Part shown: piece after piece, positions 31,972 through 58,851 of the stretch
Layout: every line of letters begins with the position of its first letter
Position numbering within the stretch: position 1 is the first letter of the stretch
Translations under genes and position numbers: made by a program
Notes under the pieces: model-generated
What the model was told of the DNA's origin: nothing
Database searches by the model: none
Seen by the model: the letters and a program-made list of their open reading frames with translations, nothing else
DNA from: an uncultured Treponemataceae bacterium
GTDB lineage: Bacteria; Spirochaetota; Spirochaetia; Treponematales; UBA12059
NCBI GenBank assembly: GCA_964576835.1
Contig: CAZNXK010000002.1
Span: forward strand, 13,789-77,788
Length of the DNA stretch: 64,000 nt
Direction of reading: 5' to 3'

Positions 31972-32116
31972 TCGTCCGCCTCTCCGCACAGCATTTTTTT
32001 AGGAGCATGAGCCACACTCCACCCGAAAGAAGTCTAGTGCCCCGAATTCTCCACTGTCAATAGAAGGCAGGGGCCGGATAGTTGACGGTCGGCTCGGCAA
32101 TGAGGATAGTATTGAT

Positions 32117-33625: not shown

Positions 33626-33639
33626 GCGCCAGGCGGAAC

Positions 33640-36159: not shown

Positions 36160-36201
36160 AGGACGTTGCCCCAGGGGCGTTGTCCCGCAAAAAGGAAGAA
36201 T

Positions 36202-37371
36202 ATGAGCAAATACAGGACTACCATACTAGCCGCGGCGTTGCTGTTCGCGGCATCGTCTGCCTTTGCCGACGACGCCGTCAGGACCTACGGCCGCGTCCTG
36301 GCAGAAGCCGGGACGGTAGAGCAGAAATACGCCATCGCGACGAGCATTGCCGCGCTCAACGATCCCGACGCGGCCCGGTACGTCGCCGATGCCCTTGATT
36401 GGGCTCTCGCGACCCGCGGCTCCAGCAAGACCGGCCCCGAACGGGAAATTTACGAACGTCTTTCAAGGACACTGCTCAAGTTGCTTGGCGATTGGCGCTA
36501 CACGAATGCGGCGTCTTCTGTCATGAGGGCCGTCGATGATTCGCCCGATCCGCTGACCAAGGCGGAAGCGCTGATAGCCCTGGGCTCGATGCGTGCCGTG
36601 GAGTATGCCGAACGGGTCTCGCTCCTGCTCCGCGACATGAACAACGATCCTGCGGCCGATCGTGACGCCGGCGAGAAGATAGCCTACGGCTGCGTGCTGG
36701 CACTTGAACGGATGCGCTCTCCCGTGGGATTCTCGCCGCTTTTCTTCGCCAGCGAGGGCTGGTACTCAAAGCGCGTCCGCGACCAGGCAGAACGGAGCCT
36801 TCCGCTGATACTCGAGGACCCGAGCGATGCGGTCATCGCGATCCTGTCGGTGGAGACACCGCCGCGGATGATCAGGGCTCTCGCGCTCGAGCTTCGCTCT
36901 GCGGCACCCGCGGCCGGCAAGCGCCGGGTCGCGTCCATGGCTCTTGCGCGCGGCATAGCGTCATTGCCAAGGTTCAAGACCGAAGCGAACCAGCTTTCCG
37001 AGCTGCGTGTGATGGCCATGAACGCGCTCGCCGCAATGGGACCGGGCGACGGCTCGCTGGCATCGAACTTTACCGAGGCTTACCGAATAGGGCCGACCGA
37101 CGAGCGCCTCGTCGCGCTCAAGGCGATGGGCGCCGACAGGACCGCCCCCTCGGCGCTGGCGCTGCGCGACATCATCCTCGACCTCAACTCGGCCCAGCTC
37201 GCGGGAGTCGTCGACGAGACCAGGAACGCGCTGATGCGCGCCGCCTTGCAGAACGCCGCGATCAACGCAAGCAAGGAACTGGCCCCGGCGATCCAGACCG
37301 TGCTGATCAACTCAGGCTGGTCGGGCGGCGTGCTCACGCTTGCGAGCGCCGCGCAGAAAGCCCTCCAGTGA
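36202..37371 (+). CDS. Secreted alpha-helical (HEAT/ARM-like) repeat protein, hypothetical
   Basis: Signal peptide MSKYRTTILAAALLFAASSAFA. The body is Ala/Leu-rich helical repeats. The ATG at 36202 is chosen inside track ORF 36166..37371. Confidence 0.65.
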   Translation: MSKYRTTILAAALLFAASSAFADDAVRTYGRVLAEAGTVEQKYAIATSIAALNDPDAARYVADALDWALATRGSSKTGPEREIYERLSRTLLKLLGDWRYTNAASSVMRAVDDSPDPLTKAEALIALGSMRAVEYAERVSLLLRDMNNDPAADRDAGEKIAYGCVLALERMRSPVGFSPLFFASEGWYSKRVRDQAERSLPLILEDPSDAVIAILSVETPPRMIRALALELRSAAPAAGKRRVASMALARGIASLPRFKTEANQLSELRVMAMNALAAMGPGDGSLASNFTEAYRIGPTDERLVALKAMGADRTAPSALALRDIILDLNSAQLAGVVDETRNALMRAALQNAAINASKELAPAIQTVLINSGWSGGVLTLASAAQKALQ

Positions 37372-38501: not shown

Positions 38502-39515
38502 CTACAGCCGCGCCGCAGTCCAGGCAAGGGTCCTGCCGGCGGCGAGCGGCGTGACGCCGTCCAGCGCTGCCGGCACGGTCCATGGCGTGCGCGACAAGGC
38601 GAGCCGCCCCTGGTTGTACGGCAGGCCGTAGAACCGCGCGCCGTTCTCCGACACGAAGGCCTCGAGGCGGTCGAGCCGCCCGGCGTCCTCGAAGGCGGCG
38701 GCGAGCAGGCTCATGGCGACGGGCGCTGAATAGCAGCCAGCGGCGCCGCCTGCCTTGGCCGCGGGCGGATGCGGTGCGCTGTCGCTGCCGAAGAAGAAGC
38801 GGGGCGAGCCCGCGGCCAGGACAAGCGCCTCGCGGTCCCTGGCGCTTTTCAGCACAGGCCTGCAGAAATACGATGGATCCAGCCTGTCACCGATCATGTC
38901 GTCGATGGTGTACGACAGATGATGGGCGCTGATGGTCGCGGCGACCCGTTCGGGCCAACCCAGGACCGCGTCCACCGCGGTTGCCGTCGACAGGTGTTCT
39001 ACCACTATCCTGATCCCTGGATGACTCGCAAGCAACCTGTCCACGGTCGGCAGGAAGGCCGTCTCGCGCTCCAGCGCCGGAACCAGCGGATCCTCGGCAT
39101 GCACCGACAGCACGAGGCCCGCAGCCTCCATCGCGACGAGTTCGACGGCGACGCTGCCCGGGTCGGGAATGCCGTCCGAGGAGTTCGTCGTCGCACCGGC
39201 CGGATAGTACTTGCCCGCCTTGGCTCCCGCCGCCGCGCAGGCGAATACGGCGTCGCGCCCCATGCCGGGGACCAGCTTGAAGCTCATCACCGGCTCGGCA
39301 ACCAGGCCCGACGCGGCCACGGCCGCGACCAGCGCCCGTCGGTAGTCGTCCATCGAGGCAGCTGTGGCAAGCGGCGGAACGACGTTGGGCATCGCGAGGA
39401 AGCGGCCGAAATGCGCTGCTGTCCTCGCCACGTAGGCCGCCATGGCCGGTCCCTGGCGCATGTGGACATGGAAATCGTCTGGAAGGCGTATCACGAGATC
39501 AGCCACCGAAGGCAA
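38502..39515 (-). CDS. pyrC: Dihydroorotase (E. coli-type, class II)
   Basis: LPDDFHVHMRQG, AMPNVVPP and KYYPAGATTNSSDGI align with E. coli PyrC (RPDDWHLHLRDG, VMPNLAPP, KLYPANATTNSSHGV). Confidence 0.88.
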   Translation of the reverse strand: MPSVADLVIRLPDDFHVHMRQGPAMAAYVARTAAHFGRFLAMPNVVPPLATAASMDDYRRALVAAVAASGLVAEPVMSFKLVPGMGRDAVFACAAAGAKAGKYYPAGATTNSSDGIPDPGSVAVELVAMEAAGLVLSVHAEDPLVPALERETAFLPTVDRLLASHPGIRIVVEHLSTATAVDAVLGWPERVAATISAHHLSYTIDDMIGDRLDPSYFCRPVLKSARDREALVLAAGSPRFFFGSDSAPHPPAAKAGGAAGCYSAPVAMSLLAAAFEDAGRLDRLEAFVSENGARFYGLPYNQGRLALSRTPWTVPAALDGVTPLAAGRTLAWTAARL

Positions 39516-41121
39516 ACTCCACGATGGAAACGTCGTCGTCGAACAGGGCTTTGGACGACAGTCCGCGCACCGAGTCGACGATGCGTTTTATCGGCGACAG
39601 GCAGGCTGGCGATACCAGGCACTCGCGGTGATGCGCCTCGAGGAGAGTCATGAATTCCTCCCAGGCCAGTATGGTTCCCGCCTTGGTCCTGACCTCGAAG
39701 AGTCCATCGCTGAAAAGGTACAGGTTGGAATCGGGATCGATCAGCTGATCGAATTCGCCGAAGCTCGCCGCCTCGTCGACGCCTATCACCGGTCCGTCGC
39801 CAGCAAGCTCGATGACCGAGCCGCCTGCCCCGACAAGGATGGCGGGCGGGCTTCCTGCGCTCGCGTAGCGGAGCTGCCTCGTGGACGAGTCGTACACGCC
39901 GTACCATATCGTGAAGAACATGTTGTTCTGGTCCTCGATGCGGAACGACCTGTTGAGCTTCGAGAGCACCGACGACGGCGACGAGTAGTCGACCCCGCCG
40001 AGCGACAGGCTGCGCAGCATGTTCATGATGGTCACGGACAGCAGCGCGGCCTGGATTCCGTGCCCGCTGACGTCGAGAAGGTACAGCGCAAGTCGCTTGT
40101 CGTCGATGGCGTGGTAGAAGAAGCAATCTCCCCCGAGGCTCAGGGATGGTATGAATTCCCAATCGGCGGCCACGCCCTGCCAGCGGAGCCGCTTGGGCAG
40201 TAGGCTCCTGACATACTCTGCGGCATCGCGCAGTTCGCCGGCCAGGCGTTGCTGGGTCTCGATGAGACGGCGGAGCGCCTCGTCATTCTCGCGCTTGTAC
40301 GCCTTCTTTTCGAGGAGGCTGTCGATGCGGGCCTTGAGTATCAGGGGATTGAAGTCCCGCGGCATGTAATCCTCGGCGCCGAGCTCGAGGCAACGGGCCA
40401 TGGAAGCGGGGTCGTCGAGCGCTGAAACCACGATGGTCGACATGTCGCGGAGCCTCGGGTCGTCATGGATGGCCTCGAGGAACTGGTAGCCGTTCATGCC
40501 GGGCATCATCACGTCGAGGACGACGATGTCGAACGGCGCCTCGGACAGTATCGAGAAGGCCTCGTTGCCGTTGGCCGCCTGGCAGACGACGTGTCCCTGC
40601 CGTTCGAGATGCCTCGAAAGAATCTCCCGGTTGAACGGGTCGTCGTCCACGACGAGAATGCGCCCGGAGACGCGGCGGACTTCCGGCTGGCTGGCGGCAC
40701 GGCTCAAGGAAGACGGATCGGTATCGATGGTCGAGAAGGCGTCGGCGCCTTCGAACAGGTCTGAAAGCGCGTTTGCCGCTTCGTGGACCTTGTGGATGTC
40801 CTCGAGCGCCTTGGTGCCGGCGGGCGATACGCGCCTTGCCGACTGGACAAGCGAGACGAGTTCATAGATGTGCTCGTAGACCTGCATGCGGAGCGCATTG
40901 GATGGTTCCGAACCGTCGAGGATCGAGGCCAGGTACGCCAGCACCGGTTGCCGGAGGGCTATCGCGGCCGCGCCTATGGCCCTGAAGCTTGCGCTGAGTT
41001 CCGGTGCCGTCAGCGTGCCCGAATCGCCGGCCAGCAACTCCCCGAACCCGACGACATGATTGAGTATGGTCCTCGCCTCGTGGCGGAACCGTGCCCGCAC
41101 GTCGTCGTCTTTTCCGTTCAT
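39499..41121 (-). CDS. Response regulator fused to a PP2C/SpoIIE-type phosphatase, with an N-terminal HisKA/HPt-like helical domain
   Basis: 540 aa. The N-terminus FRHEARTILNHVVGFGELL is H-box-like. The receiver is RILVVDDDPFNRE...DIVVLDVMMPGMNG. The PP2C part has GGDCFFYHAIDDKRLALYLLDVSGHGIQAA and LYLFSDGL. Its 3' end overlaps the pyrC start by 17 nt. Confidence 0.88.
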   Translation of the reverse strand: MNGKDDDVRARFRHEARTILNHVVGFGELLAGDSGTLTAPELSASFRAIGAAAIALRQPVLAYLASILDGSEPSNALRMQVYEHIYELVSLVQSARRVSPAGTKALEDIHKVHEAANALSDLFEGADAFSTIDTDPSSLSRAASQPEVRRVSGRILVVDDDPFNREILSRHLERQGHVVCQAANGNEAFSILSEAPFDIVVLDVMMPGMNGYQFLEAIHDDPRLRDMSTIVVSALDDPASMARCLELGAEDYMPRDFNPLILKARIDSLLEKKAYKRENDEALRRLIETQQRLAGELRDAAEYVRSLLPKRLRWQGVAADWEFIPSLSLGGDCFFYHAIDDKRLALYLLDVSGHGIQAALLSVTIMNMLRSLSLGGVDYSSPSSVLSKLNRSFRIEDQNNMFFTIWYGVYDSSTRQLRYASAGSPPAILVGAGGSVIELAGDGPVIGVDEAASFGEFDQLIDPDSNLYLFSDGLFEVRTKAGTILAWEEFMTLLEAHHRECLVSPACLSPIKRIVDSVRGLSSKALFDDDVSIVEFAFGG

Positions 41122-42336: not shown

Positions 42337-43758
42337 ATGGGGATAGCCGTACCTGCCAGTTTCGATATTCCGACGCTCAGCCTGGCCCTGACCATAGTGC
42401 ACCTTGGCAGTGCCTTGTTCGCCTGCCTGCTATTCGCGTATCACCGCTCGTTTCCCGGCGCCAGGCTCTGGATCCTCGGCCAGTTCCTGCTGACGACAGG
42501 CGCGCTGGGCGTCACGATGCAGTCGCTCGGGCTGCCATATTCGACGCTGGGAGTATCGAACGTCGCCCTGCTGGCCAGCGTCGTTGTCATGGGCAACGCG
42601 ATCTGGTTGTTCCGCTTCGGTGGCGGATTCCCTTTCTGGATGTATGCGGTGATACCCCTGGGCATCATCGCATGGTATGCCCGTGCCGGGACCACGACAG
42701 GATTTCAGGTCTTGGCCTTTTCAGGTAGCCTTTGTGTGCTCTCAGGCTCGGTCGCGGCGATGCTCCTGGCCTGGCGCAACGTTCCGTTCGCCAGCGTTTA
42801 CAGGATAGCGTCCATTCCTTTCATTATAACATCGCTTGTAGGGTTCTCCAGAGCGACAGGCGCGGTTCTGGGAAGGCTGCCGCTGACCATATCGGAAACC
42901 GGGGCGATGGGCGCGGTCGAATACATGGTCGGGCTCATTGTCGCTTTCTTCAACCTGTTCGGATACTTCCTGCTGTCGTCGGCGAAGGCCGGGCAGGAAC
43001 TCGAAGCCCGGGAAGCGGAAATCAGGCAGCACAACGACGAGCTGGTCGAGACGGTCGCAACCAAGGACGCGCTGATCGCCGTCATTGGGCACGACCTGCG
43101 TGCACCGGCCTGGAGCGCCGCGCACTATGTCCGCAGCCACCTCGTCGATTTCGACGGCGACCTTAACTCCAAGCGCGAGAAAATCGAAACCCTCGCCGAA
43201 GGCCTCGAAAGAATCTCGGGGCTGCTCGATTCGTTGCTGGAATGGGCTCTCTGCGCCTCCGGGCGGATGAAACTGGAGTCCAGCCCCATCTCGGCAGGAG
43301 AACTGATAGCGGAAGCGGCAACGGATCTCGGGTCGGTGGCCGCCGTCAAACGCGTATCGATCGAAGCGCCGACAGGCGATGGCATCATCGCGGGGGACAG
43401 GCGCGCCTTGGCGACCGTGTTCAGGAACCTCCTTTCCAACGCGGTCAAATATTCGAAGGAAGGTTCGTCGGTACGGACGGTGATTGAACAGAAATGCGAG
43501 CCACACGATGGCCAGCGCCTTACCGTCGTCGTCGAGGACGATGGTGTCGGTATGAAGCCGGAGCAACTGGCCGCGTTGTTCATGCCGGGGAGAACCATCC
43601 TCACGCTCGGTACTGCCGATGAGCAGGGCAAGGGATTCGGCCTGGCCATAAGCAAGCTGTTCGTCGAGGCCATGGGTGGAACGATGCGTGTGGAGAGCCA
43701 CTTGGGTCAGGGCAGCCGGTTTGTGCTTGATTTTCCCGTTTCCGGCTCCAAGGAATGA
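42337..43758 (+). CDS. Sensor histidine kinase with polytopic membrane N-terminal domain
   Basis: 473 aa with about 6-7 TM helices. It has a coiled coil, the H-box LIAVIGHDLRAPA, the N-box FRNLLSNAVKYS, and G-boxes VEDDGVGM and GFGLAISK. No response regulator is adjacent. Confidence 0.88.
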   Translation: MGIAVPASFDIPTLSLALTIVHLGSALFACLLFAYHRSFPGARLWILGQFLLTTGALGVTMQSLGLPYSTLGVSNVALLASVVVMGNAIWLFRFGGGFPFWMYAVIPLGIIAWYARAGTTTGFQVLAFSGSLCVLSGSVAAMLLAWRNVPFASVYRIASIPFIITSLVGFSRATGAVLGRLPLTISETGAMGAVEYMVGLIVAFFNLFGYFLLSSAKAGQELEAREAEIRQHNDELVETVATKDALIAVIGHDLRAPAWSAAHYVRSHLVDFDGDLNSKREKIETLAEGLERISGLLDSLLEWALCASGRMKLESSPISAGELIAEAATDLGSVAAVKRVSIEAPTGDGIIAGDRRALATVFRNLLSNAVKYSKEGSSVRTVIEQKCEPHDGQRLTVVVEDDGVGMKPEQLAALFMPGRTILTLGTADEQGKGFGLAISKLFVEAMGGTMRVESHLGQGSRFVLDFPVSGSKE

Positions 43759-48401: not shown

Positions 48402-48489
48402 TGGCTACCTTATAGCGCAGAATCGCCGAAGTTGGAAAGACCGTATGCGAGCCTGTCTGTTTGACGCCGGGACGCGGTATACTCGAGGC

Positions 48490-49308
48490 ATGAATTTCAA
48501 TCGATTTGCCTTGTTCACCACGGTGGCTCTCGCGGCTGTCATGGCCACGGTCCCGGCTACCGCGACTCCATCGGCCTCCGCGCCGCTTGCCTCCTGGATC
48601 GACCCGGCCATCGCCGCCAGGCTTCTCGCCGGCGAAGCGATGCGGGCATCGTCTGCGGGCAGGTCGGCGGCGCCTTCACTTGCGCCCAGGCACCCTTCCG
48701 CCGCCAGCGCGGGCGCCGCCCTCGCGGCAGAAGCCCCGGACGTGATAGTCGAGGCTCTGTTCCTGTGGAAAAAGCCGCGCGCAGTCGAAACCGCGGCAGG
48801 GGCGCTCGCTGTCTACAACGTACTCAGGGCTGTTGGCAGCCTGCAGGGCCTGGAATACTGGTCCGCAAGCAGGGGTCGTATGAGGCTGCTGTACGAATAT
48901 TCGAGCCTGATCGCCGGGCTGGATGACCCGACGCCGGTCCGTGACACGCGACTTCCGGCATTGCCGGCGAATGCCGAAACCCTCTTCGCGAGGCAGAAGG
49001 ACCTGTCGTTCGGCGACAACATCTACAGGGTATCGCTGTCGACCGGGCCAGGCTACACCGCCCAGCACTCGACCAACCTGACGGGCATGCGCTATGGCAT
49101 AGTGCCGGTAGCCGCGCCCGGCGTGGTAAACGTACGACTCCTCGTCATCGATGTCGACGAGGGGCTGATATTCTACACAATTTCGAGCGCAAAGGCCGCG
49201 GTATTGCCCGGTATCAGGGCAAAACTGGAATCGTCTTTCGGCAACCGGGCCGAAGCCGTGTACAGCTGGTTCTCCCGTGAGCTCGCGAAAGCCTGGCCCG
49301 CACGCTGA
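48490..49308 (+). CDS. Secreted hypothetical protein
   Basis: 272 aa with signal peptide MNFNRFALFTTVALAAVMATVPATA. The ATG at 48490 is chosen within track ORF 48025..49308, whose upstream part is antisense to the transporter. TATACT lies 6 nt upstream of the ATG. Confidence 0.6.
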   Translation: MNFNRFALFTTVALAAVMATVPATATPSASAPLASWIDPAIAARLLAGEAMRASSAGRSAAPSLAPRHPSAASAGAALAAEAPDVIVEALFLWKKPRAVETAAGALAVYNVLRAVGSLQGLEYWSASRGRMRLLYEYSSLIAGLDDPTPVRDTRLPALPANAETLFARQKDLSFGDNIYRVSLSTGPGYTAQHSTNLTGMRYGIVPVAAPGVVNVRLLVIDVDEGLIFYTISSAKAAVLPGIRAKLESSFGNRAEAVYSWFSRELAKAWPAR

Positions 49309-49341: not shown

Positions 49342-51000
49342 CTATATCAGCGGTTCGACGTCCGCGGCCTCATCCAGCGCTGCGCCCGGTGCGGCCGGAT
49401 ACCCGGGAGCGTCCGCCATCGGCGGCGCGGCCACCGAGTCGGCCGGCTTGATGAACGCGAAGTTTTTCATGATACGCACGAAGGTGTCGGTCTTGCGGCG
49501 GCTTTCATTCAGCGTCGCGAGAATTTCCTTGTTGCGGACGCCTCCAAGGCTTCTGATGTTGGTCACGAGTTCCGGGCTCGGCTTTTTGTAATCCGCCAGG
49601 AGTTCTCCGAGCGTCTCGGACAGCATCTGGAACAAGCCCGTCTCGTCCTCGCAGATCTCGCGCGCCTTGTAATTGATCTCGTCCACTATCTTGGACAGGA
49701 ACGGCATGATGTCCTTCCCGTGTCTCATCTCCTCGACATAGCGCCTGACCGCGGGCACGCTTACCCGGGTATTGCCCTTGAGGCCTTCCTCGAATGAATC
49801 GATGCGGCCTCCGGTCCTGTCGCACTGGTACAGGATGTTCGCGAGGCTGTTCTGGAAATTCTTGCTGTCGAAATAGCCCTCGACCAGGATCTTCTTTACG
49901 GTTTCCTTGATCTGCGTTTCGAAAACGCCCCTGACGAAGGTCTTGAGTATTCCCATGGGCTTGACGTGGGTAAATCCGCTGGGACTCTCGCGCCTGAGGT
50001 ACGAGTCATTGTCCTCGTTGTATCCATCGAGCGCCAGCACCTCGGTTCCGCCGAACAAGTCCTGTATGTCCATCGAGACGGCATTCTCGTGCCGCTCCCG
50101 CAGGAGGCGCTCGCGGTCGCGCTCGTACTGCGTGACCAGGCGTTTGCGGTATTCGTCGATATAGTCGACTCGTTCACGGCGCAGGTCCGGTTCGTGGATG
50201 GGATCGCGCTTGGTCAGGCGGATGAGGGCAAGCAGGTTGTCGCTCGACAGCCGGTAGAGGAGGATCTTGTTGAGTGTCGAAAAGAGCTTGGTGATCTTCC
50301 CCGCCTGGCTGGCCGCGGTGGCAGGAGCATGCCGCTCGAAGACGCGCATCGTCTTGGCCAACAGCGGTTCCGAGAACGAGAATCCGATGAGAAGGTAATA
50401 TGCGTCTATGAGTTCCGGGAGAACCTGCTCGCCGTCGCAGGCCTGGAAATCCGGTCTGTAGCGCGAATCGTCGATGCTGGCGCCAGGATCGAAGAAACCG
50501 AGCATACGCTCCCAGTCATGCCTGCATACCTCGATGAATCGGCTGACCTCGTGGAGGTCTATGTTCAGAGTCCCGTTCGACAGATAATCGACACTCTTGA
50601 GGAAACGCAGGAAATCGCGGCCGATGGCCTCCTGCTCCTCGTCTTCCTTGACGGCATTCTCTATCCGTGCCTTCATTCCGTCGTAGACGAAGCTTTCCTT
50701 CCTGACCAGTTCGTCGGCAGGCAACTCCAGGTCGATGAGATAATCGAAGTACCGTCGGGAAACACGCAGGTCGGGGTGCGCGAGCGTCCTGTCGGCCAGG
50801 TCCATGAGCGGTTTCAGCGCCTGGCAGAAAAGGTACAGATCCTGCGCGAAGCCCGGCATGACGAGGTTGTTCTTGAAGCGGTAATACGGCGGCTTTATAT
50901 GCGCGACGATGGAATAAATGCGCTTGAGTTCGCCTTTTGCGCCAACGTCGAAGCCGAGGAGTCCGCGGAAAAAGCCTATCACGGCTTGAAGGATGCCCAT
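49342..51000 (-). CDS. Large conserved-looking hypothetical protein (552 aa), cytoplasmic, helical
   Basis: Long ORF with coding-like composition. The N-terminus is amphipathic (MGILQAVIGFFRGLLGF) and the C-terminal tail is acidic and Pro/Ala-rich. No motif recognised. Confidence 0.75.
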   Translation of the reverse strand: MGILQAVIGFFRGLLGFDVGAKGELKRIYSIVAHIKPPYYRFKNNLVMPGFAQDLYLFCQALKPLMDLADRTLAHPDLRVSRRYFDYLIDLELPADELVRKESFVYDGMKARIENAVKEDEEQEAIGRDFLRFLKSVDYLSNGTLNIDLHEVSRFIEVCRHDWERMLGFFDPGASIDDSRYRPDFQACDGEQVLPELIDAYYLLIGFSFSEPLLAKTMRVFERHAPATAASQAGKITKLFSTLNKILLYRLSSDNLLALIRLTKRDPIHEPDLRRERVDYIDEYRKRLVTQYERDRERLLRERHENAVSMDIQDLFGGTEVLALDGYNEDNDSYLRRESPSGFTHVKPMGILKTFVRGVFETQIKETVKKILVEGYFDSKNFQNSLANILYQCDRTGGRIDSFEEGLKGNTRVSVPAVRRYVEEMRHGKDIMPFLSKIVDEINYKAREICEDETGLFQMLSETLGELLADYKKPSPELVTNIRSLGGVRNKEILATLNESRRKTDTFVRIMKNFAFIKPADSVAAPPMADAPGYPAAPGAALDEAADVEPLI

Positions 51001-51050
51001 TGGCGTTTATTCTATGTCAGGAAGGCCGCAGGAGCAAGCGCCGGGCAAGG

Positions 51051-51530
51051 CTACGCCCTTTTCGCTTCCATGAACAGGTAGTCGTCGCCGCGCCCCGCCT
51101 CGCCACGGTAAAATCCGGCACGAGCGGCACCGGTCAAAAGGGACCGGTGCGCATAGACAGGAGCGCCTGTCGCTACGGCCAGCGCAAGCGCGTCCGATGG
51201 CCGGACATCGCGCGTCCAGGTCCGCAGGCCCTTGCCGTATTCCATCCTGGCCAGGAAGCCATCCTCGTCGGTTCCATACAGACCGTAGAGTTCGACGCGG
51301 CGTATAGACAGGCCTTGCTCCCTTAAAACCTGCGCCATGAGGTCGTGGGTCAGTGGTCTGGGTGTCGAGATCCCCTCGAGTTCAAGAAGGATGGCACCGG
51401 CCTCCGCCGCTCCGACGGCGATGCAGCATTCGCCGGGTCCGCATTCTTCCTCGAGGATGACGACAGGGGCGGCTTCCTCGGATGGCATGGCCACTCCCTT
51501 GACTCGGACACGCAGCATATCTTCATTCAT
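51051..51530 (-). CDS. Bifunctional nuclease (BFN/DUF151) family protein
   Basis: 159 aa, with PVVILEEECG...IAVGAAEAGAILLELEGISTPRPLTHDLM...VRPSDALALAVATGAPVY, the typical BFN domain pattern. Confidence 0.85.
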   Translation of the reverse strand: MNEDMLRVRVKGVAMPSEEAAPVVILEEECGPGECCIAVGAAEAGAILLELEGISTPRPLTHDLMAQVLREQGLSIRRVELYGLYGTDEDGFLARMEYGKGLRTWTRDVRPSDALALAVATGAPVYAHRSLLTGAARAGFYRGEAGRGDDYLFMEAKRA

Positions 51531-51624
51531 GAAAATTAGTATATTCCATAAACTTGGTAATTCATGCCAAATCGAGCTCTTCCTTGACTACCGCGCAAGC
51601 CCGCGAGTACACTTCCTTTCGATC

Positions 51625-52074
51625 ATGAGGCGTATACCACTGTATTTCATATGCGCGGGCATCGAGCTCGCCCGATACTTCTCGCTTGTCCAGGCTGCCG
51701 GATCTTTCGCGGCAGCTTCGCCGTCGGCACCCCAGGTGCTCCGCCTCGTCGCGTCGCCGAACGCCCTGTTCGCCGTCGCCTTCTTCTTCCTCGGCTTCGA
51801 CGGCGATAGATACGACTCGTACCGACCCCTGCTGATAGTGGGCAAGCTGGTCGTCCTGTTTTCAGGCATCATGGCCCTTCCGCGGCTGTTCGGCCTCGGC
51901 GGTTCGCCCGAGCCATCCATGGCCGCGACCTTCACGATACTCGGCATCGCCGTATGGGACGCGGCATCGGTGGCGATTCTCTGGTTCAAGCGCCGCCCGA
52001 CTCCCGCCGGCGGCGCGGCGCCGGCCGAGGGACAGCCTGCCGCGAGCGAACCGGAACTCGTGGAGCTCGACTGA
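51625..52074 (+). CDS. Small membrane protein, hypothetical
   Basis: 149 aa with 3-4 hydrophobic segments (ALFAVAFFFLGF, LLIVGKLVVLFSGIMAL, TFTILGIAVWDAASVAILWF). It ends 1 nt before the MinD/ParA start. The ATG at 51625 is chosen inside track ORF 51337..52074. Confidence 0.55.
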   Translation: MRRIPLYFICAGIELARYFSLVQAAGSFAAASPSAPQVLRLVASPNALFAVAFFFLGFDGDRYDSYRPLLIVGKLVVLFSGIMALPRLFGLGGSPEPSMAATFTILGIAVWDAASVAILWFKRRPTPAGGAAPAEGQPAASEPELVELD

Positions 52075-52075
52075 C

Positions 52076-53221
52076 ATGCGGATATTACCGGTCGCCAGCG
52101 GCAAGGGCGGTGTCGGAAAGTCGCTCGTCTGCGCCAACCTGTCGATAGCCCTGGCACAGGCCGGCAAGCGGGTCGTGCTTGCCGACCTCGACCTGGGCTC
52201 ATCGAACCTGCACCTGATGCTCGGCTTCAACGTTCCAAGGCACGGGCTCGGAACCTACCTGTCGGGGGCCAAGGTGCGCTTCGACGACATCATCTACGAT
52301 ACCGATTACCAGAACCTGCGGTTCATACCCGGAGACGCGGAAATACCAGGGCTCGCCAATATCTCCTACAGGCAGAAGACCCAGCTGGCCAGGCATCTCA
52401 TCGCCATCGAAGACACCGACTACCTGGTGCTCGACCTCGGCGCCGGTACCGGCTCGAACATCCTCGACTTCTTCCTTCTGTCCGGCAGAGGGCTCCTCGT
52501 CACGGCACCGACGCTGCCGGCCACGCTCAACGCATACCTGTTCCTCAAGAACGCGGTCTTCAGGCTGATGTGGGACAGCTTCAAACCCCGCTCGAAAGCC
52601 CGCGCCTTGCTGGAGTCGCTGAAGAAAGACGGAGCGTCGCTCCAGCGGGCATACATCCCTGAAATACTCGGCCGCGTGACCGAGATCGACCCGGCCAGCC
52701 GCTCCGCCTTCGACATGCGCATGTCCAAATTCCAGCCCCGCCTCATCCTCAACATGCTTGAGGATCCCAAGGACGCCGACAAGGCGCAGAAGATCAGGCG
52801 CTCGTGCCTGGAATACCTGGGGATGGACCTCGAGCACCTCGGCATCATCTACCGCGACGACCTCCAGGACGTGGCGCTCGGCAGCCGCATCCCCATCATC
52901 AGGTACAAGCCCCAATCGGTGCTTTCGCAGGCCATCTACCGGATAGCGGACAAGCTTGTCTCATCGGAGGGTGAGGAAGATGCCTTCCTCGACCCGGAAT
53001 ATCTGGACGACAGCTACGGCGCCGCGGACACCGAGGCCAACGTCGATTTCGAAGCCAAGATGGACTACGTCGAAGAACTGCTCTCCAGCGGCGCGCTGAC
53101 CCAGGGGGATCTTGTCGAGACGGTGCGCATGCAGCAGTACGAGATCAGCCAGCTGCGCAAGGAAAACCAGTTCCTCAAGTCGAAGATGGCCAAGGCCCTG
53201 TCCCAGGGTTTCAAGGTCTAG
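52076..53221 (+). CDS. MinD/ParA-family ATPase (FlhG/YlxH-like) with C-terminal coiled-coil extension
   Basis: Deviant Walker A ASGKGGVGKS and Walker B YLVLDLGAG. The ~120-aa C-terminal extension ends in a possible amphipathic helix, KMAKALSQGFKV. Confidence 0.88.
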   Translation: MRILPVASGKGGVGKSLVCANLSIALAQAGKRVVLADLDLGSSNLHLMLGFNVPRHGLGTYLSGAKVRFDDIIYDTDYQNLRFIPGDAEIPGLANISYRQKTQLARHLIAIEDTDYLVLDLGAGTGSNILDFFLLSGRGLLVTAPTLPATLNAYLFLKNAVFRLMWDSFKPRSKARALLESLKKDGASLQRAYIPEILGRVTEIDPASRSAFDMRMSKFQPRLILNMLEDPKDADKAQKIRRSCLEYLGMDLEHLGIIYRDDLQDVALGSRIPIIRYKPQSVLSQAIYRIADKLVSSEGEEDAFLDPEYLDDSYGAADTEANVDFEAKMDYVEELLSSGALTQGDLVETVRMQQYEISQLRKENQFLKSKMAKALSQGFKV

Positions 53222-53230
53222 GACCAGGAT

Positions 53231-56173
53231 ATGGCCGGAACCAGCGTCAAGGGTGACATGACCCTGCTCGTCGACGAACTCGGTCTCGAGGCCGCATTCC
53301 GCTTTTCGCCGTCATCAGGCGGCGCCGAATGGACGGCGGACGGGCTCGCACGGCTGCTTGCGGAAGCACGGGTTTCGGGCGTCAGCTCGCGCCGCCTCGA
53401 AGAGGTTCTTCGATCGTTCGCGCCGGCAAAGGCGCCGGTGACCGAGATCGTGGCGAAAGGCCAGGCTCCCGAGGCGGGCCTGCCCGAGGAAGCCGAATGG
53501 AATGACCTCGAGACGCCACCTGAATACAAGCCGTTCGAGGCGGAATCCATAGCGGGCGCGGCTGGACCCGAGCTGTACCGCGTACGTATCGAACGCGTCG
53601 CCAGGGAACGCACCGTAAAAAAGGCCGGAGCGTTTCCCTTCATGCCCTCGAGGGAAGAAAAAACGGTCGAGTACGAGAAGGTCGAAGTCCGCGAACCTGT
53701 CGTCGTCGATACCAGGGTCATTCGTTCGTTCTGGGTGCCGAAGGGAACCCTGGTCGCCAGGACCGCCCCGGCGCGCCCCGGCAAGCCAGGCAAGAGCGTC
53801 CAGGGCAAACCCATCCCGCCTGGCAGGGATGAAGATGCCAATTTCCACATCGGCACGGGCCTGTCACGCGAAAAAGGAGACATAGTCTCGGCCGAAGCCG
53901 GCTTCGTGCGCGTCGGGGCCAGGTGGGCCGACATTGTCCCCTTCCACTCAGGCGACTATGCCATACGTCTGTCGGGCGACAACTCCACCGTGCTCCTCGA
54001 CTACAGCCCGGGCGACAAGCGGCTCCCGCCGCCCGATGCCGCCGCCATACTCCAGGAAGCGGTCGAACTCGGTCAGTCAGTAGAAAGCCTCATCGGCATA
54101 GAAGAAACGGCATCAGCGTTGCTCAAGGCGACGAGAAGCGGGCAGGCGCTGACCGGCTACAGCCTCTCCGGCGACCGTGACGCCGCCGCGACCGTGGAAA
54201 TATCGCCTGACAAGCTCAAGGCGACGCTCAGCGTGATGAAGGGCAGGGGCAAGGGCAAGCCGCTCGAGCTGTCCATGGTCAGCGCGGCCCTGTCCGGGCA
54301 TCGACTGAAGGGCGTCAAGGTCGACAAACTCAAGGCGGACGTCCTTGCCTTTTTCAAAGGCAAGGAAACGGAACTTTTCCGGTATCCGCTGGCGGAAGGC
54401 AAGGATCCCGTCAAGGGCAAGGACCGCACGATCATGTTCGGGGTCGCGTTCCTGCCGGAAGCGCAGGGCGAGGAGTACGCGTCGGTCGCCCAGGCGGCCC
54501 CCGGGTTGTCGCGCGTTGCCAGGAGCCTCGACGAGTTTCCTGTTGCCGCCGCTACCCGGATAGCCCTCGTCAAGAAGGGCCAGGAAGTTGCCCGATTCAG
54601 CCCTCCTTCTCCCGGACAGGCAGGGACGGACGTGTACGGTACGGCGATACCCGCGGCCTACGGCAACGATCCCGCGGTCAAGGTTTTCGAGAACCTCAAA
54701 GTTTCCCCGGATTCGATGGAGAGCGAGGATGACGGTTTGCTCCTGGTAGCGGAGAATGGTAGCCAGACGCTGGCCAGGGTCCTCCCGTATAGGGACGCCA
54801 GGATCTCGGTCACCGTCGCTGGGGACGCGATGTCCGCGCGCGTGGACGTGGAGCGTAGCTACGGTCTGGGAAGGGAACTGACGCTCGAGTCGGCACAGGA
54901 AGCCTTGAAGCAGTCAGGAGTCGTGGCCGGCATCGACGTCAAGGCGCTTGCCTCGGCTCTGGCCGAGGCGCGCGGCGGCAAGCAGGCCAGCGGCCGTCAG
55001 GTTGCCCGCGGAAAGGATCCAGTACCCGCCGGCGGGTACTGGATCAACTGGATCACGAGGATAGCCAGCGGGGCCGCGGTCACCGTCCGGTCGGACGGTT
55101 CCGCCGATTACAAGAACCAGGACAGGGCGACAATAGTCGTCGAAGGCCAGCCCATCATCGAACTGCTCGCCATAGGCGTAGAGGGACAGGACGGCCTGGA
55201 CGTACTTGGAAGCGCCGTGCCTGCGCCCAAGGATCCGAATGTCGGCGAACCCCCGACCTTCGACTCGTCCATACTTGAGGAAAAGCGGGAAAATGGCGAC
55301 CGCCTCCTCAAGGCCGGCAGGAGCGGGGAGCTCCGCTTCGAGAAAAACGCCCTTGCCATAGACCAATCCTGGAAGATCAACGGGGATGTCGGACCGGCGA
55401 CCGGCAACATCCGGTTCCCTGGTCCTGTCACCGTCTCGGGTACCGTGCTCACTGGCTACGCACTTGTCGCCGGCGGCGACATACTCGTCGCCGGGTCGGT
55501 GGAAGCCGCCCTCGTTACCGCTGATGGGACGGTCAAGATCACCGAGGGCATCAAAGGCGCGAAGCGCGGGATGATCAGGGCCAGCGCGACCATAGAAGCA
55601 TCGTTCGCGGAGCAGGCAATGCTCCTTGGCGTCCAGGACATCGTACTCAAGAATTCCGCCCTGCTGTGCAACATCAAGACCAACGGCAAGCTCTCGCTGC
55701 TTGGCGACAAGGGCCACCTTATCGGAGGCCTGTGCAGGGCCAGAAAAGGCATAGAAGTACAGAACCTCGGCTCGGAGAATGGCGCAAGAACCCAGGTCTC
55801 TTTCGGACAGGACTATCTGGTCAAGGATGCCATCGAAGCGGAGGAGAAGGAGATCGAGCGCGTCAAGACGATGATACTCCAGGCCGACAAGTCGATGCGG
55901 GAGCAGGAGAAGCTCGGTTCCAACCTGGACGCCATCCGCCAGGACAAGCTCAAGCTCGTGAAGATCCTCGAAAAGCGCTCGATGCGCGTCTTCGAGCTCC
56001 GTGAAAAATTCGAAGAGCATTTCCCCGGCGAGCTTGTCGTACGGGGTTCGGCGTTCGCGGGCGTAGTCCTCGAAAGCCACAACCGCTTCCACGAACTCCG
56101 TCAGACAAAGCAGAAGGTGGCGTTCTCGTTCGACCCACAACTGGGGCGGATCGTGGAGCGACCCCTCAAATAA
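53231..56173 (+). CDS. FapA (DUF342) family protein, unusually long with internally repeated N-terminal modules
   Basis: 980 aa. The C-terminal beta-helix core is GNIRFPGPVTVSGTVLTGYALVAGGDILVAGSVEAALVTADGTVKI...NGKLSLLGDKGHLIGG, followed by a coiled coil. Upstream there are three copies of the G-x-x-G-x-x-V-x-G-x-x-I/V-P motif (GKPGKSVQGKPIPP, GQAGTDVYGTAIPA, GQDGLDVLGSAVPA). Each is preceded by FapA_N-like modules. Confidence 0.85.
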   Translation: MAGTSVKGDMTLLVDELGLEAAFRFSPSSGGAEWTADGLARLLAEARVSGVSSRRLEEVLRSFAPAKAPVTEIVAKGQAPEAGLPEEAEWNDLETPPEYKPFEAESIAGAAGPELYRVRIERVARERTVKKAGAFPFMPSREEKTVEYEKVEVREPVVVDTRVIRSFWVPKGTLVARTAPARPGKPGKSVQGKPIPPGRDEDANFHIGTGLSREKGDIVSAEAGFVRVGARWADIVPFHSGDYAIRLSGDNSTVLLDYSPGDKRLPPPDAAAILQEAVELGQSVESLIGIEETASALLKATRSGQALTGYSLSGDRDAAATVEISPDKLKATLSVMKGRGKGKPLELSMVSAALSGHRLKGVKVDKLKADVLAFFKGKETELFRYPLAEGKDPVKGKDRTIMFGVAFLPEAQGEEYASVAQAAPGLSRVARSLDEFPVAAATRIALVKKGQEVARFSPPSPGQAGTDVYGTAIPAAYGNDPAVKVFENLKVSPDSMESEDDGLLLVAENGSQTLARVLPYRDARISVTVAGDAMSARVDVERSYGLGRELTLESAQEALKQSGVVAGIDVKALASALAEARGGKQASGRQVARGKDPVPAGGYWINWITRIASGAAVTVRSDGSADYKNQDRATIVVEGQPIIELLAIGVEGQDGLDVLGSAVPAPKDPNVGEPPTFDSSILEEKRENGDRLLKAGRSGELRFEKNALAIDQSWKINGDVGPATGNIRFPGPVTVSGTVLTGYALVAGGDILVAGSVEAALVTADGTVKITEGIKGAKRGMIRASATIEASFAEQAMLLGVQDIVLKNSALLCNIKTNGKLSLLGDKGHLIGGLCRARKGIEVQNLGSENGARTQVSFGQDYLVKDAIEAEEKEIERVKTMILQADKSMREQEKLGSNLDAIRQDKLKLVKILEKRSMRVFELREKFEEHFPGELVVRGSAFAGVVLESHNRFHELRQTKQKVAFSFDPQLGRIVERPLK

Positions 56174-56201
56174 AATCAGGATTCGATGACCGGAGGTAGC
56201 C

Positions 56202-57224
56202 ATGCTCGCCGCAATACAGTTCCCCTCGTGGATCCACCCCGAGATACTGCCGTTCTTCCCGCAGTTGCCGCTTCGCTGGTACGGCCTCATGTACCTCGTC
56301 GGCTTCGGCATTACCTATCTCCTCTTCAAGTACCAGGTCAGGAAACGCAAGCTTGACTATTCCGATGACGACATCTCGGGATTTTTCCTCGCGGGCATCG
56401 TCGGGCTGATAATCGGCGCCAGGCTGCTGGGTACCCTGCTGTACGATCCCACCGGCATCTACTGGCGCAAACCCTGGCTGATATTCTGGCCGTTCGGCGA
56501 AGGCGGGCGCTTTACCGGGTTCATGGGCATGTCGTTCCACGGCGGCTTCATTGGCCTCGTCATCGGTGTCATGATGTATTCGAAACGGCTGAAGCTGGAT
56601 TTCCTTGCATGGGCTGACATGCTCGCGGTTTCGGTACCCTTGGGTTACACCTTCGGCAGACTCGGCAACTTCATCAACGGGGAGCTGTGGGGCAAGGTCA
56701 GCGCCGCGCCCTGGGCGATGGTCTTTCCGGGAGCCAAGCGTTTTCCCGCAAGCGCAGCCTGGGTCCGCGACATCGCGGAACGGGCCGGCATCGCCATCGA
56801 AGGAACGCTCGTCAACCTGCCGCGGCACCCGTCGCAGTTGTACGAGGCCTTGTTTGAAGGAATTGTCCTGTGGCTGGTTCTGTGGTTCCTGGTCAGGCCG
56901 CGCATGCCGTTCAAGGGTTTCGCCGTCGGCGCCTATGTCACCGGTTACGGAATGGTCCGCTTCGTGCTGGAATACTTCAGGGAGCCCGACGCCGACCTCG
57001 GCTACATCATCAGGCTCGGAGACCCGGCCGCGTCGATCCATCTCTACACGACGCCCCTCAATTTCTCGATGGGTCAGCTGCTCTGCTTCCTGATGATAGT
57101 GGGAGGACTCGGCTTCATCGCGATCCGCTGGCGCATCTCGAAGTCGCAGTCGTTGCTCCTTGCGGCCGCTGAGGTTGAACGTGCGAAGATCCAGAGCGCC
57201 AGAAAGAAACTGAAGAAGCGCTAG
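56202..57224 (+). CDS. lgt: Prolipoprotein diacylglyceryl transferase
   Basis: Has LRWYGLMYLVGF, FHGGFIG, GRLGNFINGELWG and HPSQLYEA, the Lgt signature motifs. It has a basic C-terminal extension. Confidence 0.9.
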   Translation: MLAAIQFPSWIHPEILPFFPQLPLRWYGLMYLVGFGITYLLFKYQVRKRKLDYSDDDISGFFLAGIVGLIIGARLLGTLLYDPTGIYWRKPWLIFWPFGEGGRFTGFMGMSFHGGFIGLVIGVMMYSKRLKLDFLAWADMLAVSVPLGYTFGRLGNFINGELWGKVSAAPWAMVFPGAKRFPASAAWVRDIAERAGIAIEGTLVNLPRHPSQLYEALFEGIVLWLVLWFLVRPRMPFKGFAVGAYVTGYGMVRFVLEYFREPDADLGYIIRLGDPAASIHLYTTPLNFSMGQLLCFLMIVGGLGFIAIRWRISKSQSLLLAAAEVERAKIQSARKKLKKR

Positions 57225-57310
57225 ACTCAAGCGCCACGTCCGCGCCGCTACCCCGAAAAAGGGCTTTCAGCAATGGCCAGAAGTGAATTCGCGCGGGGGC
57301 CCGCCTCGAC

Positions 57311-57342
57311 AAAAACAGGCTCGCTGCGCGAGTCCGTTTTTG
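57311..57342 (+). terminator. Rho-independent terminator (A-run/hairpin/T-run, potentially bidirectional)
   Basis: AAAAACA, then GGCTCGC-TGC-GCGAGTCC, then GTTTTTG. It lies ~90 nt after the lgt stop. Confidence 0.55.
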
Positions 57343-57707
57343 CCGGTCGCCCCACGCACATTTACGGAGCTGGCCTTTCCGAAAGCATCCCGAGGCGGCG
57401 CGGACGTGCCTTTCAGGTACTGCGAAGAGCTGATTCTGGAATCAAGGAATGCCGTCAGTTTTCACCAGTCAGCATGCCGTGACAGCTACCTTCGAAAAGA
57501 ACGAGCTGTCAATCCCCGCGCCGCCGAGAGTATTCCTCGGCAAAGCCATAAACGGTGAGGCGCGCGGGACGCGGCAACCCGCTGTTCACCCTGCGCCGTA
57601 CCATGCCCATCGCGCTGTGGTTATACGCAGGTAGAATTGGTATGACGCATGAGTCGGGCCGGGAAATGTTTTGAAAGGCCTGAACCGGGAAATTGCGTCG
57701 GGCGCTC

Positions 57708-57738
57708 GTGAAAATACCATCGCGCCTTGGCGCGATGG
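57708..57738 (-). terminator. Rho-independent terminator of pfk
   Basis: The minus strand reads CCATCGCGCC-AAGG-CGCGATGG (57738-57717) followed by TATTTTCAC. It starts 7 nt after the pfk stop. Confidence 0.65.
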
Positions 57739-57744
57739 ATGTGG

Positions 57745-58851
57745 CTAAATCTCGTCTCCGAAGCACGTACCCACCAACCTGGCGGTGTCCAGCATGTAAT
57801 GGTCCGACGGTATGGTCTTCGTACGGTCGGCTACCTCCGACAGGGGAATCGACGTGACCGAGGCATCCTTCATCGCGACCATCCTGCCAAAACGGCCGCG
57901 GGACAGGAGTTCGGCGGCCGCGGTCCCGAAAGTCGTCGCGAGCACGCGGTCATACGGGCTCGGCGTTCCACCACGCTGCAGGTAGCCGAGCACGGTGACG
58001 CGCGTCTCCATGCCGGTCAAAGACTGAATTTCCGCGGCGACGCGGTAGCCGATGCTCGGGTAGGTCATCTTCTCGCGGAGCCTCTTGCGCTCCTTTTTTG
58101 GCAAGGCGGCTTCTTCCCTGGAAAGCGCGCCTTCAGCGACGACCACGATCGAAAATTGTTTGCCCTCGGAACGGCGCTTCTCGATGTCGCGGGCTACGGC
58201 AGCGGAGTCATAGGGAATCTCGGGTATCAGGATGACGTCGCCGCCTCCGGCAATGCCTGCGTACAATGCCAACCAGCCGGCCTTGTGCCCCATCAGCTCT
58301 ATCACCATCACCCGGTTATGCGAATGGGCGGTCGAATGCAGGCGGTCTATCGACTCCGTGGCTATGTCGACGGCCGAATGGAAGCCGAACGTCACGTCGG
58401 TTCCCCAGATATCGTTGTCTATCGTTTTTGGAAGGCCGATGACCGGCAGGCCTTCCCTCGACAGCAGGTGGGCTGTGGTGTTTGTGCCGTTTCCGCCGAG
58501 AACGACAAGGGCGTCGAGCCTGAGCCTGGCGACCGTTTCCTTTATCTGTTCAGGTTTGTCCTGGCCGACTTCGGCGTCGGAGGTGATGCCGTCGTCGCGC
58601 CCCTTGAACGGCTTCTCGCGCGATGAGCCGAGTATCGTGCCTCCCCGCGTCAGGATGCCGGAAAAGTCGTCGGGAGACAGCACGCGCGCGTCGCCGTCGA
58701 TCAGTCCGCGGTAACCGTTGGAGATGCCGACTATTTCCATGCCGAAGACGCTGGAAGCGGCCTTGGCGACGCCCCGGATGGCCGCGTTCAGGCCCGGACA
58801 GTCTCCGCCGCTCGTCAGGATACCGAATCGCTTGACCGCGCTCGTCGCCAT
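57745..58851 (-). CDS. pfkA: 6-phosphofructokinase (phosphoryl-donor specificity uncertain)
   Basis: Has FGILTSGGDCPGLNAAIRG, LVVLGGNGT, GLPKTIDNDI and MGHKAGW. The donor determinants are mixed: GGNGT versus E. coli GGDGS, and PKTIDND versus PGTIDND. Confidence 0.9.
   Translation of the reverse strand: MATSAVKRFGILTSGGDCPGLNAAIRGVAKAASSVFGMEIVGISNGYRGLIDGDARVLSPDDFSGILTRGGTILGSSREKPFKGRDDGITSDAEVGQDKPEQIKETVARLRLDALVVLGGNGTNTTAHLLSREGLPVIGLPKTIDNDIWGTDVTFGFHSAVDIATESIDRLHSTAHSHNRVMVIELMGHKAGWLALYAGIAGGGDVILIPEIPYDSAAVARDIEKRRSEGKQFSIVVVAEGALSREEAALPKKERKRLREKMTYPSIGYRVAAEIQSLTGMETRVTVLGYLQRGGTPSPYDRVLATTFGTAAAELLSRGRFGRMVAMKDASVTSIPLSEVADRTKTIPSDHYMLDTARLVGTCFGDEI

Follow-up and report, generated by a model that had tools for sequence, protein, structure and literature searches.

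In a window of 64,000 nucleotides (nt) from the genome of an uncultured Treponemataceae bacterium (GenBank assembly GCA_964576835.1, contig CAZNXK010000002.1), we characterized an operon in which the genes for a small membrane protein, a MinD/ParA-type ATPase, a 980-amino-acid (aa) protein of the FapA (DUF342) family and the prolipoprotein diacylglyceryl transferase Lgt follow one another on the same strand (Table 1). The gaps between them are 1, 9 and 28 nt, as a first-pass annotation of this DNA had stated and as can be read directly off the letters. The operon most likely places some cellular structure. Our preferred model, to which we give a probability of about 0.5, is that the ATPase and its FapA partner are a paralogous copy of the flagellar flhG-fapA pair, that this copy has moved out of the flagellar operon, and that it would work as a MinCD-style membrane switch joined to a scaffold.

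The FapA protein is built from three copies of one module followed by a single core. Against Pfam, the whole protein scored 202.7 bits for FapA_N (PF20250; gathering score 27), spread over five stretches, and 173.3 bits for the FapA beta-solenoid (PF03961; gathering score 31), over aa 715-968. When the modules were excised and scanned one at a time, FapA_N scored 54.7 bits on module 1, which is interrupted by an insertion of about 70 aa, 78-79 bits on module 2 and 85.1 bits on module 3, the canonical full-length copy, which covers profile positions 1-178 of 178. We also compared sub-alignments drawn from 30 family members with hhalign, which gave probabilities of 98.6% for modules 1 and 2, 99.1% for modules 2 and 3 (E 8.6e-19) and 96.3% for modules 1 and 3, while no module matched the C-terminal core. 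The three modules align over 22 invariant columns, including the hairpin G-x-x-G-x-x-V-x-G-x-x-x-P. The stricter pattern G..G..V.G..[IV]P turned up exactly three times when all six frames of the window were translated, always in this protein and once per module; these are the three motifs that the first-pass annotation had quoted. In 20,000 shuffles of the 980-aa protein it appeared at a mean of 0.0006 matches per shuffle. Thus, the protein is indeed internally triplicated, with three genuine FapA_N modules rather than unrelated filler. The gene contains no repeat at the DNA level, and identity between the modules is only 22-31%, which together indicate that the triplication is old and exclude a recent duplication as its source.

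The structural model agrees with this division. AlphaFold2 (AF2), run on the family alignment, gave a mean predicted local distance difference test score (pLDDT) of 85.5 and a predicted template modeling score of 0.38 for the whole protein, and it resolved three alpha/beta modules (aa 1-262, 306-521 and 522-712), with a short helical linker between the first two. Behind them stands one beta-helix and then a helical hairpin, as the first reading of the sequence had anticipated, and in this core the pLDDT is mostly above 90. The core is also the most conserved part of the protein, with a mean pairwise identity of 0.56-0.58 compared with 0.35-0.51 for the modules. The linker, at 0.38, is one of the two least conserved regions, and only the middle of module 2 is lower (0.35). 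No NCBIfam model matches the protein, and a sequence search of the PDB with the family profile returned 0 matches at E<=1.

The core and its hairpin could also be read as the building block of a bactofilin-like polymer. According to this idea, the core would form a membrane-associated filament or patch, the ATPase would regulate its assembly, and the FapA_N modules would decorate it. In Myxococcus, bactofilin scaffolds serve as anchors for ParA-like ATPases, the AF2 model does place a helical hairpin after a beta-helix, and the Pfam family Bactofilin (PF04519) gave weak matches to the core (14.5-15.2 bits, E 0.025-0.044). However, such a match was obtained for only 1 of 22 family cores, at about 15 bits against a cut-off of 27.9, and no significant structural match accompanies it. 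We regard a polymer of this kind as quite unlikely.

A different resemblance recurs more often. The C-terminal domain of MinC is a beta-helix that binds MinD. Among the 22 family cores, MinC_C (PF03775) was the second most frequent Pfam match, detected below threshold in 8 of them at E<=0.1 (best 5.9e-4). The highest MinC_C score belongs to the Alkalispirochaeta alkalica protein P0378 (23.2 bits, 6.9e-5) and the window protein reaches 11.8 bits (E 0.25), both short of the gathering score of 33.2. When the PDB was searched with a profile of the core, the only entry returned was MinC (4v02_C, from the Aquifex MinCD complex), at a non-significant E of 0.33. As the core is the best conserved part of the protein and the sub-threshold MinC_C matches recur across the family, we favor a MinCD-style mechanism.

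The partner of the FapA protein is an ATPase matched by the Pfam families ParA, CbiA and AAA_31. Its N-terminus, MRILPVASGKGG, begins at the P-loop strand, and the deviant Walker A motif with its signature Lys, correctly recognized in the first-pass annotation, lies within residues 8-16 (SGKGGVGKS, with K10 and K15), which show no variation among 22 family members; the family is likewise invariant at the switch Asp residues and in the Walker B region. The protein falls short of both curated MinD models of NCBIfam, scoring 62.4 bits on the bacterial TIGR01968 (cut-off 212.9) and 91.3 bits on the archaeal TIGR01969 (cut-off 201.75). By sequence, its nearest PDB entries are archaeal MinD (1.6e-19), followed by FleN/FlhG (8e-18 to 1e-16). 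By structure, using Foldseek with the AF2 model (core pLDDT about 80-90), they are FlhG (4rz3; 2e-15, TMt 0.86), then FleN, then MinD. A search for homologues retrieved 4257 at E<=1e-10, the top 120 of which are all 379-401 aa long, and the ATPase represents a spirochaete-specific clade of 380-381 aa.

Two additions distinguish this clade. The first is a helical insertion, visible where residues 160 to 250 of the ATPase align with residues 161 to 189 of MinD. In the AF2 model it forms helices at 174-184, 186-191, 194-204 and 206-218, and its family-invariant residues are L182, D185, G186, L189, Y193, P195, I197, D205 and P206. The second is a C-terminal tail, which had been put at 120 aa; the part beyond the MinD-like core is in fact about 85 aa long. 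The tail motif LLxSGALTxGDLxETVxxQQFEIxQLRKENxFLKxKLAKAxxQGF is kept across 71 sequences, and AF2 predicts a low-confidence linker and then helices at 317-337 and 343-376, at low pLDDT. The proposal that the tail ends in a MinD-like amphipathic helix survives in part. The hydrophobic moment peaks in the last 14 aa, at 0.43-0.48, which fits an amphipathic membrane-targeting helix but is no proof of one, and the invariant polar residues described below would suit protein binding equally. A match of HTH_19 to the tail (E 0.2) was judged to be compositional and was rejected.

FlhG is defined by an N-terminal enhancer helix carrying a DQAxxLR motif, with which it activates FlhF (PMC12826062). The sequence DQA does not occur in the window ATPase. 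Moreover, its open reading frame (ORF) begins at the first start codon past an in-frame stop, so that an N-terminal extension is impossible. With neither the enhancer helix nor room for one, the ATPase is not FlhG proper. A signal-recognition-particle-type GTPase, which would be expected of flhF, was absent from the window ORFs scanned and from the flanks of related loci.

These features bear on the possibility that the pair regulates the division site, replacing or supplementing MinCD, with the ATPase acting as MinD and the FapA protein as MinC, its beta-solenoid holding on to the ATPase and its FapA_N modules engaging FtsZ or the divisome. The ATPase has a MinD-like N-terminus, free of the FlhG extension, and archaeal MinD as its best sequence match; the FapA core repeatedly draws MinC_C; and neither minE nor minC lies in the flanks examined. 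On the other hand, the ATPase stays far under the curated MinD cut-offs and its nearest structures are FlhG and FleN, the FapA protein has no MinC_N-like domain, and no cell-division genes adjoin the operon. We consider a dedicated role in division unlikely.

We then considered how widely the operon is kept. A scan of one genome per GTDB species identified 330 species with a relative of the FapA protein. The locus statistics given here come from the best 80 of these 330 loci, nearly all of them full-length, with a few cut by contig ends. All 80 are from Spirochaetota, labelled Treponemataceae, Rectinemataceae, Breznakiellaceae, Spirochaetaceae and Gracilinema caldarium, and the only named species among the matches listed are A. 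alkalica and G. caldarium. A protein search produced 71 clusters, nearly all of 960-1030 aa and all with FapA_N and FapA domains, at identities down to 34%, in which every named source organism is a spirochaete. An exhaustive search with a hidden Markov model of the three-module profile returned many clusters, formed at 50% identity, whose members have about 950-1000 aa and match the profile in three stretches. The FapA proteins of about 980 aa are a clade of their own, restricted to the Spirochaetota, with both uncultured and cultured members.

The genes that are neighbors in the window are also neighbors in other genomes. Of 69 loci at which this could be assessed, 68 have the ATPase gene immediately 5' of the FapA gene, at FapA identities of 36-74% and with a median gap of 14 nt. 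On the 3' side, the next gene is lgt in 63 of 70 assessable loci (median gap 35 nt). In nearly all of about 70 loci, the ATPase start is preceded by a small ORF (about 135-175 aa, 2-4 hydrophobic segments) whose end falls between -4 and +8 nt from it. The ATPase is the best conserved of these proteins, at a mean identity of 69%, followed by Lgt at 62% and the FapA protein at 49%. The full four-gene order recurs on a Treponema sp. contig whose FapA protein is only 37% identical. In the cultured A. alkalica (locus L083), where the FapA orthologue carries the RefSeq name 'flagellar assembly protein A', the order ATPase-FapA-lgt is kept and the small ORF is absent. Since the small ORF can be missing in this way and unrelated genes take the position of lgt in 7 of 70 loci, the invariant core of the operon is the ATPase-FapA pair, and the other two genes, for the small membrane protein and for Lgt, often accompany it and can be lost.

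The number of modules varies outside the three-module form. An orthologue of 735 aa, P0397 (L084:8001-10208), stands in an operon with the order 130-aa ORF, 378-aa ATPase, FapA and lgt; it is collinear with residues 268-979 of the window protein and thus lacks module 1. At the other extreme are metagenomic proteins with a length of 1081-2204 aa, in which 5-12 stretches matched by Pfam FapA_N precede a single C-terminal FapA domain (P0204, 2204 aa; P0205, 1481 aa; P0314, 1800 aa; P0335, 1775 aa; also P0265 and P0270). They share with the window protein the arrangement of tandem FapA_N in front of one beta-solenoid, and differ from it in having 5-12 matched stretches instead of three modules, in their lengths and in lying outside the clade of about 980 aa. 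The two-module orthologue and the longer arrays indicate that FapA_N repetition is a general property of the family, of which the triplication is one conserved instance. The earlier statement that the hairpin motif is normally present once therefore holds for canonical FapA, while the triplication itself is not unique. A further architecture was seen in P0398 (619 aa), in which an N-terminal Jag_N domain precedes one FapA_N and one FapA domain.

How does the pair compare with the systems already described? Vibrio vulnificus FapA is a flagellar assembly factor that is recruited to the pole. Canonical fapA and flhG are close neighbors in flagellar operons, one or two genes apart, and in Borrelia burgdorferi fapA is bb0267 and flhG is bb0269. 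The window protein shares with V. vulnificus FapA and B. burgdorferi BB0267 both Pfam domains of the family, at high scores, the C-terminal beta-solenoid with its helical hairpin, and a nearby gene for an FlhG/MinD-type ATPase. In contrast, canonical FapA has one FapA_N and one FapA domain, whereas the window protein has three FapA_N modules and about twice the usual length; the flagellar context of canonical FapA (fliA, flgV, flhG, flhF) is not found around the window gene; and its partner ATPase has no FlhG enhancer helix.

FlhG/FleN (PDB 4rz2/4rz3, 5j1j) is the nearest structural neighbor of the ATPase, with which it shares the deviant Walker A motif, a conserved C-terminus of amphipathic character (putative in the window ATPase) and a FapA-family gene nearby. 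The window ATPase differs from it in having no DQAxxLR helix, in having no flhF in its flanks, and in adding a helical insertion of about 55-60 aa and the C-terminal extension of 85 aa. MinD and MinC (4v02, 6riq) likewise combine an ATPase of the MinD type, whose chain opens with the P-loop strand, with a partner whose conserved domain is a right-handed beta-helix. They differ from the window pair in that the ATPase scores below the MinD cut-offs and the FapA core below the MinC_C threshold, in that the window operon and its flanks contain no minC or minE, and in that three FapA_N modules occupy the N-terminal part of the FapA protein in place of MinC_N.

Our model for the pair runs as follows. 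ATP binding would let the ATPase dimerize through its deviant Walker A motif, as the invariant motif and the fold suggest. The dimer would then be held at the inner membrane by the putatively amphipathic C-terminal helix, by the protein with four transmembrane segments (4-TM), or by both, and it would recruit the FapA protein through the beta-solenoid and hairpin core, in the way that MinD recruits the C-domain of MinC. We propose this recruitment step because the two genes are near-invariantly adjacent and the core remotely resembles MinC_C. The three FapA_N modules could serve as a multivalent adaptor for client proteins, and ATP hydrolysis would, by analogy, release the complex and so confine it in space. 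Judging by the precedent of related proteins, the most probable clients would be pole- or septum-proximal structures, such as the motors of the periplasmic flagella. A positional or scaffolding role had been suggested at the outset. It is in keeping with an FlhG/MinD-type ATPase and with the precedent of the FapA family, while the ATPase is not FlhG proper and the flanks are not flagellar.

A more far-reaching version of this model can be formulated, which we hold only tentatively and would not bet on. It sees in the operon a lineage-specific, MinCD-analogous positioning system of spirochaetes. The ATPase, held by its C-terminal helix and the 4-TM protein, would drive a FapA adaptor whose tandem FapA_N modules set the valency for clients, with 2 or 3 modules here and up to about 10 in other bacteria. 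The FapA_N arrays would then be an unrecognised class of modular scaffold, and the operon would set the placement of division, motors or envelope machinery along a very long cell.

Several observations weigh against our preferred model of a displaced flhG-fapA-type pair with a MinCD-style mode of action. The MinC_C likeness of the core stays below the Pfam threshold and could reflect nothing but the generic periodicity of a beta-helix. When the AF2 model of the 980-aa protein was searched against the PDB with Foldseek, nothing significant was found (best E 0.18), the sub-significant matches being weak local ones to Rrp4, bL27 and seryl-tRNA-synthetase arms. In the C-terminal helix of the ATPase, the invariant polar residues Q353, E356, E363, K368, K370 and Q377 are no less suggestive of a surface for protein binding than of a helix that binds lipid. 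As it has no enhancer helix, the ATPase cannot act on FlhF as FlhG does. No flagellar genes stand beside the operon in about 85 loci examined, and at two loci, L069 and L081, the FapA gene has no adjacent ATPase gene.

The last point would also be expected if the genes were held together by operon inertia alone, with the FapA protein working independently of the ATPase, and the dispensability of both lgt and the small ORF as neighbors would fit the same idea. However, the adjacency of ATPase and FapA genes in 68 of 69 loci, with short gaps, has outlasted FapA divergence to 36% identity and the reshuffling of flanking genes, and the pairing is found again in the two-module variant. We therefore consider a complete lack of functional coupling very improbable. 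At L081 (571-3501; 34% identity), the genes flanking the FapA gene are on the opposite strand and include one for a single-domain response regulator, and at L069 (5902-8922; 39% identity) an LD-carboxypeptidase-like gene lies upstream and lgt is still downstream.

The two companion genes are of different kinds. The first encodes a 149-aa protein with about four hydrophobic segments and an acidic C-terminal tail, for which no Pfam or NCBIfam family was found. Conservation among the small ORFs is weak, with some common elements (E..R in the first transmembrane segment, D..RY..YRPL..GK in a loop and an Asp in the middle of the fourth segment). An Acyl_transf_3 match on one small-ORF homologue (E 2e-4) was judged compositional and discarded. 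The tight coupling to a small membrane protein that had been pointed out from the window is thus borne out by the presence of such an ORF beside the ATPase gene in nearly all loci, with A. alkalica as an exception.

The last gene is a clear lgt, its product scoring 227.4 bits on TIGR00544 (cut-off 118.9) and 213.5 bits on the Pfam family LGT (cut-off 24.9). Its link to the rest of the operon could be functional, in which case the ATPase and FapA protein, with the 4-TM protein as part of the scaffold, would organize or regulate lipoprotein maturation or a related envelope process. The position of lgt directly 3' of the FapA gene in most loci, close behind it, speaks for this, as do three observations on gene content. 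In A. alkalica, lgt is followed by a convergent lnt (L083:9979-13183; LNT_N and CN_hydrolase domains, 725 aa). Both L083 and L084 have, immediately 5' of the operon, genes for an S41 CtpB-like peptidase and a glycosyltransferase of the WecG family, and members of the same families are found in the window at 32117-35210 (+), 16-20 kb 5' of the operon, which suggests a partly conserved wider neighborhood. The third comes from B. burgdorferi, in which bb0360 (hypothetical), bb0361 (ATP-binding protein), bb0362 (lgt), bb0363 (pdeA) and bb0364 are reported to be co-transcribed, in a passage that cites Sultan et al. 2010. This order is the same as in the window except for the FapA gene. That passage reports no FapA-family gene between bb0361 and lgt, the canonical fapA of this species being bb0267. 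We treat bb0360 and bb0361 as candidate orthologues of the window genes, and the similarity as a lead only.

Against such a functional link, the ATPase-FapA pair persists at the loci where unrelated genes have replaced lgt, and the literature searched describes no role of FapA or of MinD-type proteins in lipoprotein processing. Lgt is, to our knowledge, a housekeeping enzyme of universal occurrence, and in other bacteria it operates without partners of this kind. An organizer of lipoprotein maturation is, in our view, a doubtful interpretation with little probability, and the most fitting view of lgt is that of a housekeeping gene carried along as a co-transcribed passenger. The coupling to lgt that was first noted in the window is real as a gene arrangement. 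This arrangement does not call for a functional link to lipoprotein maturation, because lgt is replaceable while the ATPase-FapA pair is nearly invariant.

The four genes form a self-contained, co-directional block, since both flanking genes, encoding a bifunctional-nuclease-domain protein (51051-51530) and phosphofructokinase (PFK; 57745-58851), are on the opposite strand. A sigma-70-like promoter candidate in front of the first gene is the sole match in 7 kb, against a shuffled mean of 1.1, and is thus weak evidence, although its position is compatible with an operon start opposite the divergent nuclease-domain gene. The terminator-like hairpin behind lgt is equally weak, as 10 such matches were counted in the region against 5.8 expected. 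An Rfam scan of 50900-57800 found no RNA element. Two antisense ORFs, 54914-56311 (-; 465 aa) and 56166-57230 (-; 354 aa; GC content at third codon positions only 0.56), overlap the FapA gene and lgt and were rejected as typical high-GC artefacts.

Table 1 Features of the operon (positions in the 64,000-nt window)
Feature	Position	Strand	Basis
Sigma-70-like promoter candidate, TTGACT-18-TACACT, 5' of the first gene	51584..51613	+	Consensus scan, weak
Small membrane protein gene	51625-52074	+	ORF, 149 aa
ATPase gene	52076-53221	+	ORF, 381 aa
Deviant Walker A, GKGGVGKS, with Lys10 (signature) and Lys15	52100..52123	+	Read off the sequence
Clade-specific helical insertion of the ATPase, about aa 165-220	52568..52735	+	MinD alignment, AF2
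C-terminal extension of the ATPase, 85 aa (297-381)	52964..53218	+	Acidic linker, then conserved helices ending in a putatively amphipathic ...FLKxKLAKAxxQGFxx
FapA-family (DUF342) gene	53231-56173	+	ORF, 980 aa
FapA_N module 1, aa 6-262, motif GKPGKSVQGKPIP at aa 184	53246..54016	+	Pfam stretches 14-90 and 169-227
Helical linker, aa 263-305	54017..54145	+	AF2 helices 270-279 and 290-303
FapA_N module 2, aa 306-521, motif GQAGTDVYGTAIP at aa 462	54146..54793	+	Pfam on the excised piece, about aa 300-507
FapA_N module 3, aa 522-712, motif GQDGLDVLGSAVP at aa 652	54794..55366	+	Pfam, aa 525-706
FapA core: beta-solenoid aa 713-860, antiparallel helical hairpin 862-927, C-terminal beta unit 934-978	55367..56170	+	Pfam, AF2
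lgt	56202-57224	+	ORF, 340 aa
Terminator-like hairpin and T-run, 3' of lgt	57318..57334	+	Consensus scan, weak

The wider surroundings of the operon comprise genes for an Na/Pi transporter, DUF6675 and DUF5312 proteins, the nuclease, PFK and NadE, and neither flhF nor any other flagellar gene was found in the immediate flanks (about 46.7-62.4 kb of the window). The motility-related genes nearest to the operon are cheB and cheR, about 20 kb upstream, where cheB (response regulator and methylesterase) adjoins cheR at 30016-31989 (-); their presence indicates a chemotaxis system and a probably motile organism. The DUF5312 gene (49342-51000, -) encodes a 552-aa protein with DUF5312 as its sole match (42.8 bits), and next to it lies a gene for a 275-aa DUF6675 protein with a signal peptide (48481-49308, +). 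Only the closest relatives (L001-L010, L013 and L031) have conserved the DUF5312 and nuclease-domain genes on the 5' side of the operon. Regulators of a partner-switching or stress type are scattered over 17559-19271 (+), 39499-41121 (-) and 42337-43758 (+), and include a STAS-domain protein, a CesT_Tir_1/YbjN-like protein beside PspA/IM30, a response-regulator-SpoIIE phosphatase and an HATPase_c kinase. ORFs of 300-606 aa at 9384-11204 (-), 35257-37371 (+) and 38502-39515 (-) show gene-like codon-position GC and gave no Pfam match at E<=1e-5.

The individual domains and the ATPase superfamily are already known, and databases label such proteins 'FapA family' or 'flagellar assembly protein A'. 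In the literature searched on the FapA/DUF342 family, we found no characterization of long FapA proteins or of an ATPase-FapA operon. Undescribed there are the conserved tri-modular architecture, the near-obligate partnership, away from flagellar operons, with an ATPase clade that is FlhG/MinD-like and yet distinct, and the broader occurrence of FapA_N arrays, which, with 2 to 10 or more modules, point to a modular scaffold architecture.

It is understood only in part how spirochaetes, with their long and thin cells, position their subpolar periplasmic flagellar motors and their division sites. The operon described here, widespread and strongly conserved in the Spirochaetota, is a concrete candidate for a part in this positioning, as it would couple a second switch of the FlhG/MinD type to a multivalent FapA protein. 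If bb0361 of B. burgdorferi is orthologous to the ATPase, its reported co-transcription would support an ATPase-lgt transcript in a spirochaete, and if bb0360 and bb0361 are both orthologues, the system would be amenable to study in a genetically tractable pathogen. For the poorly understood FapA family as a whole, the pair offers a testable idea, namely that FapA proteins may be MinC-like partners of MinD/FlhG ATPases.

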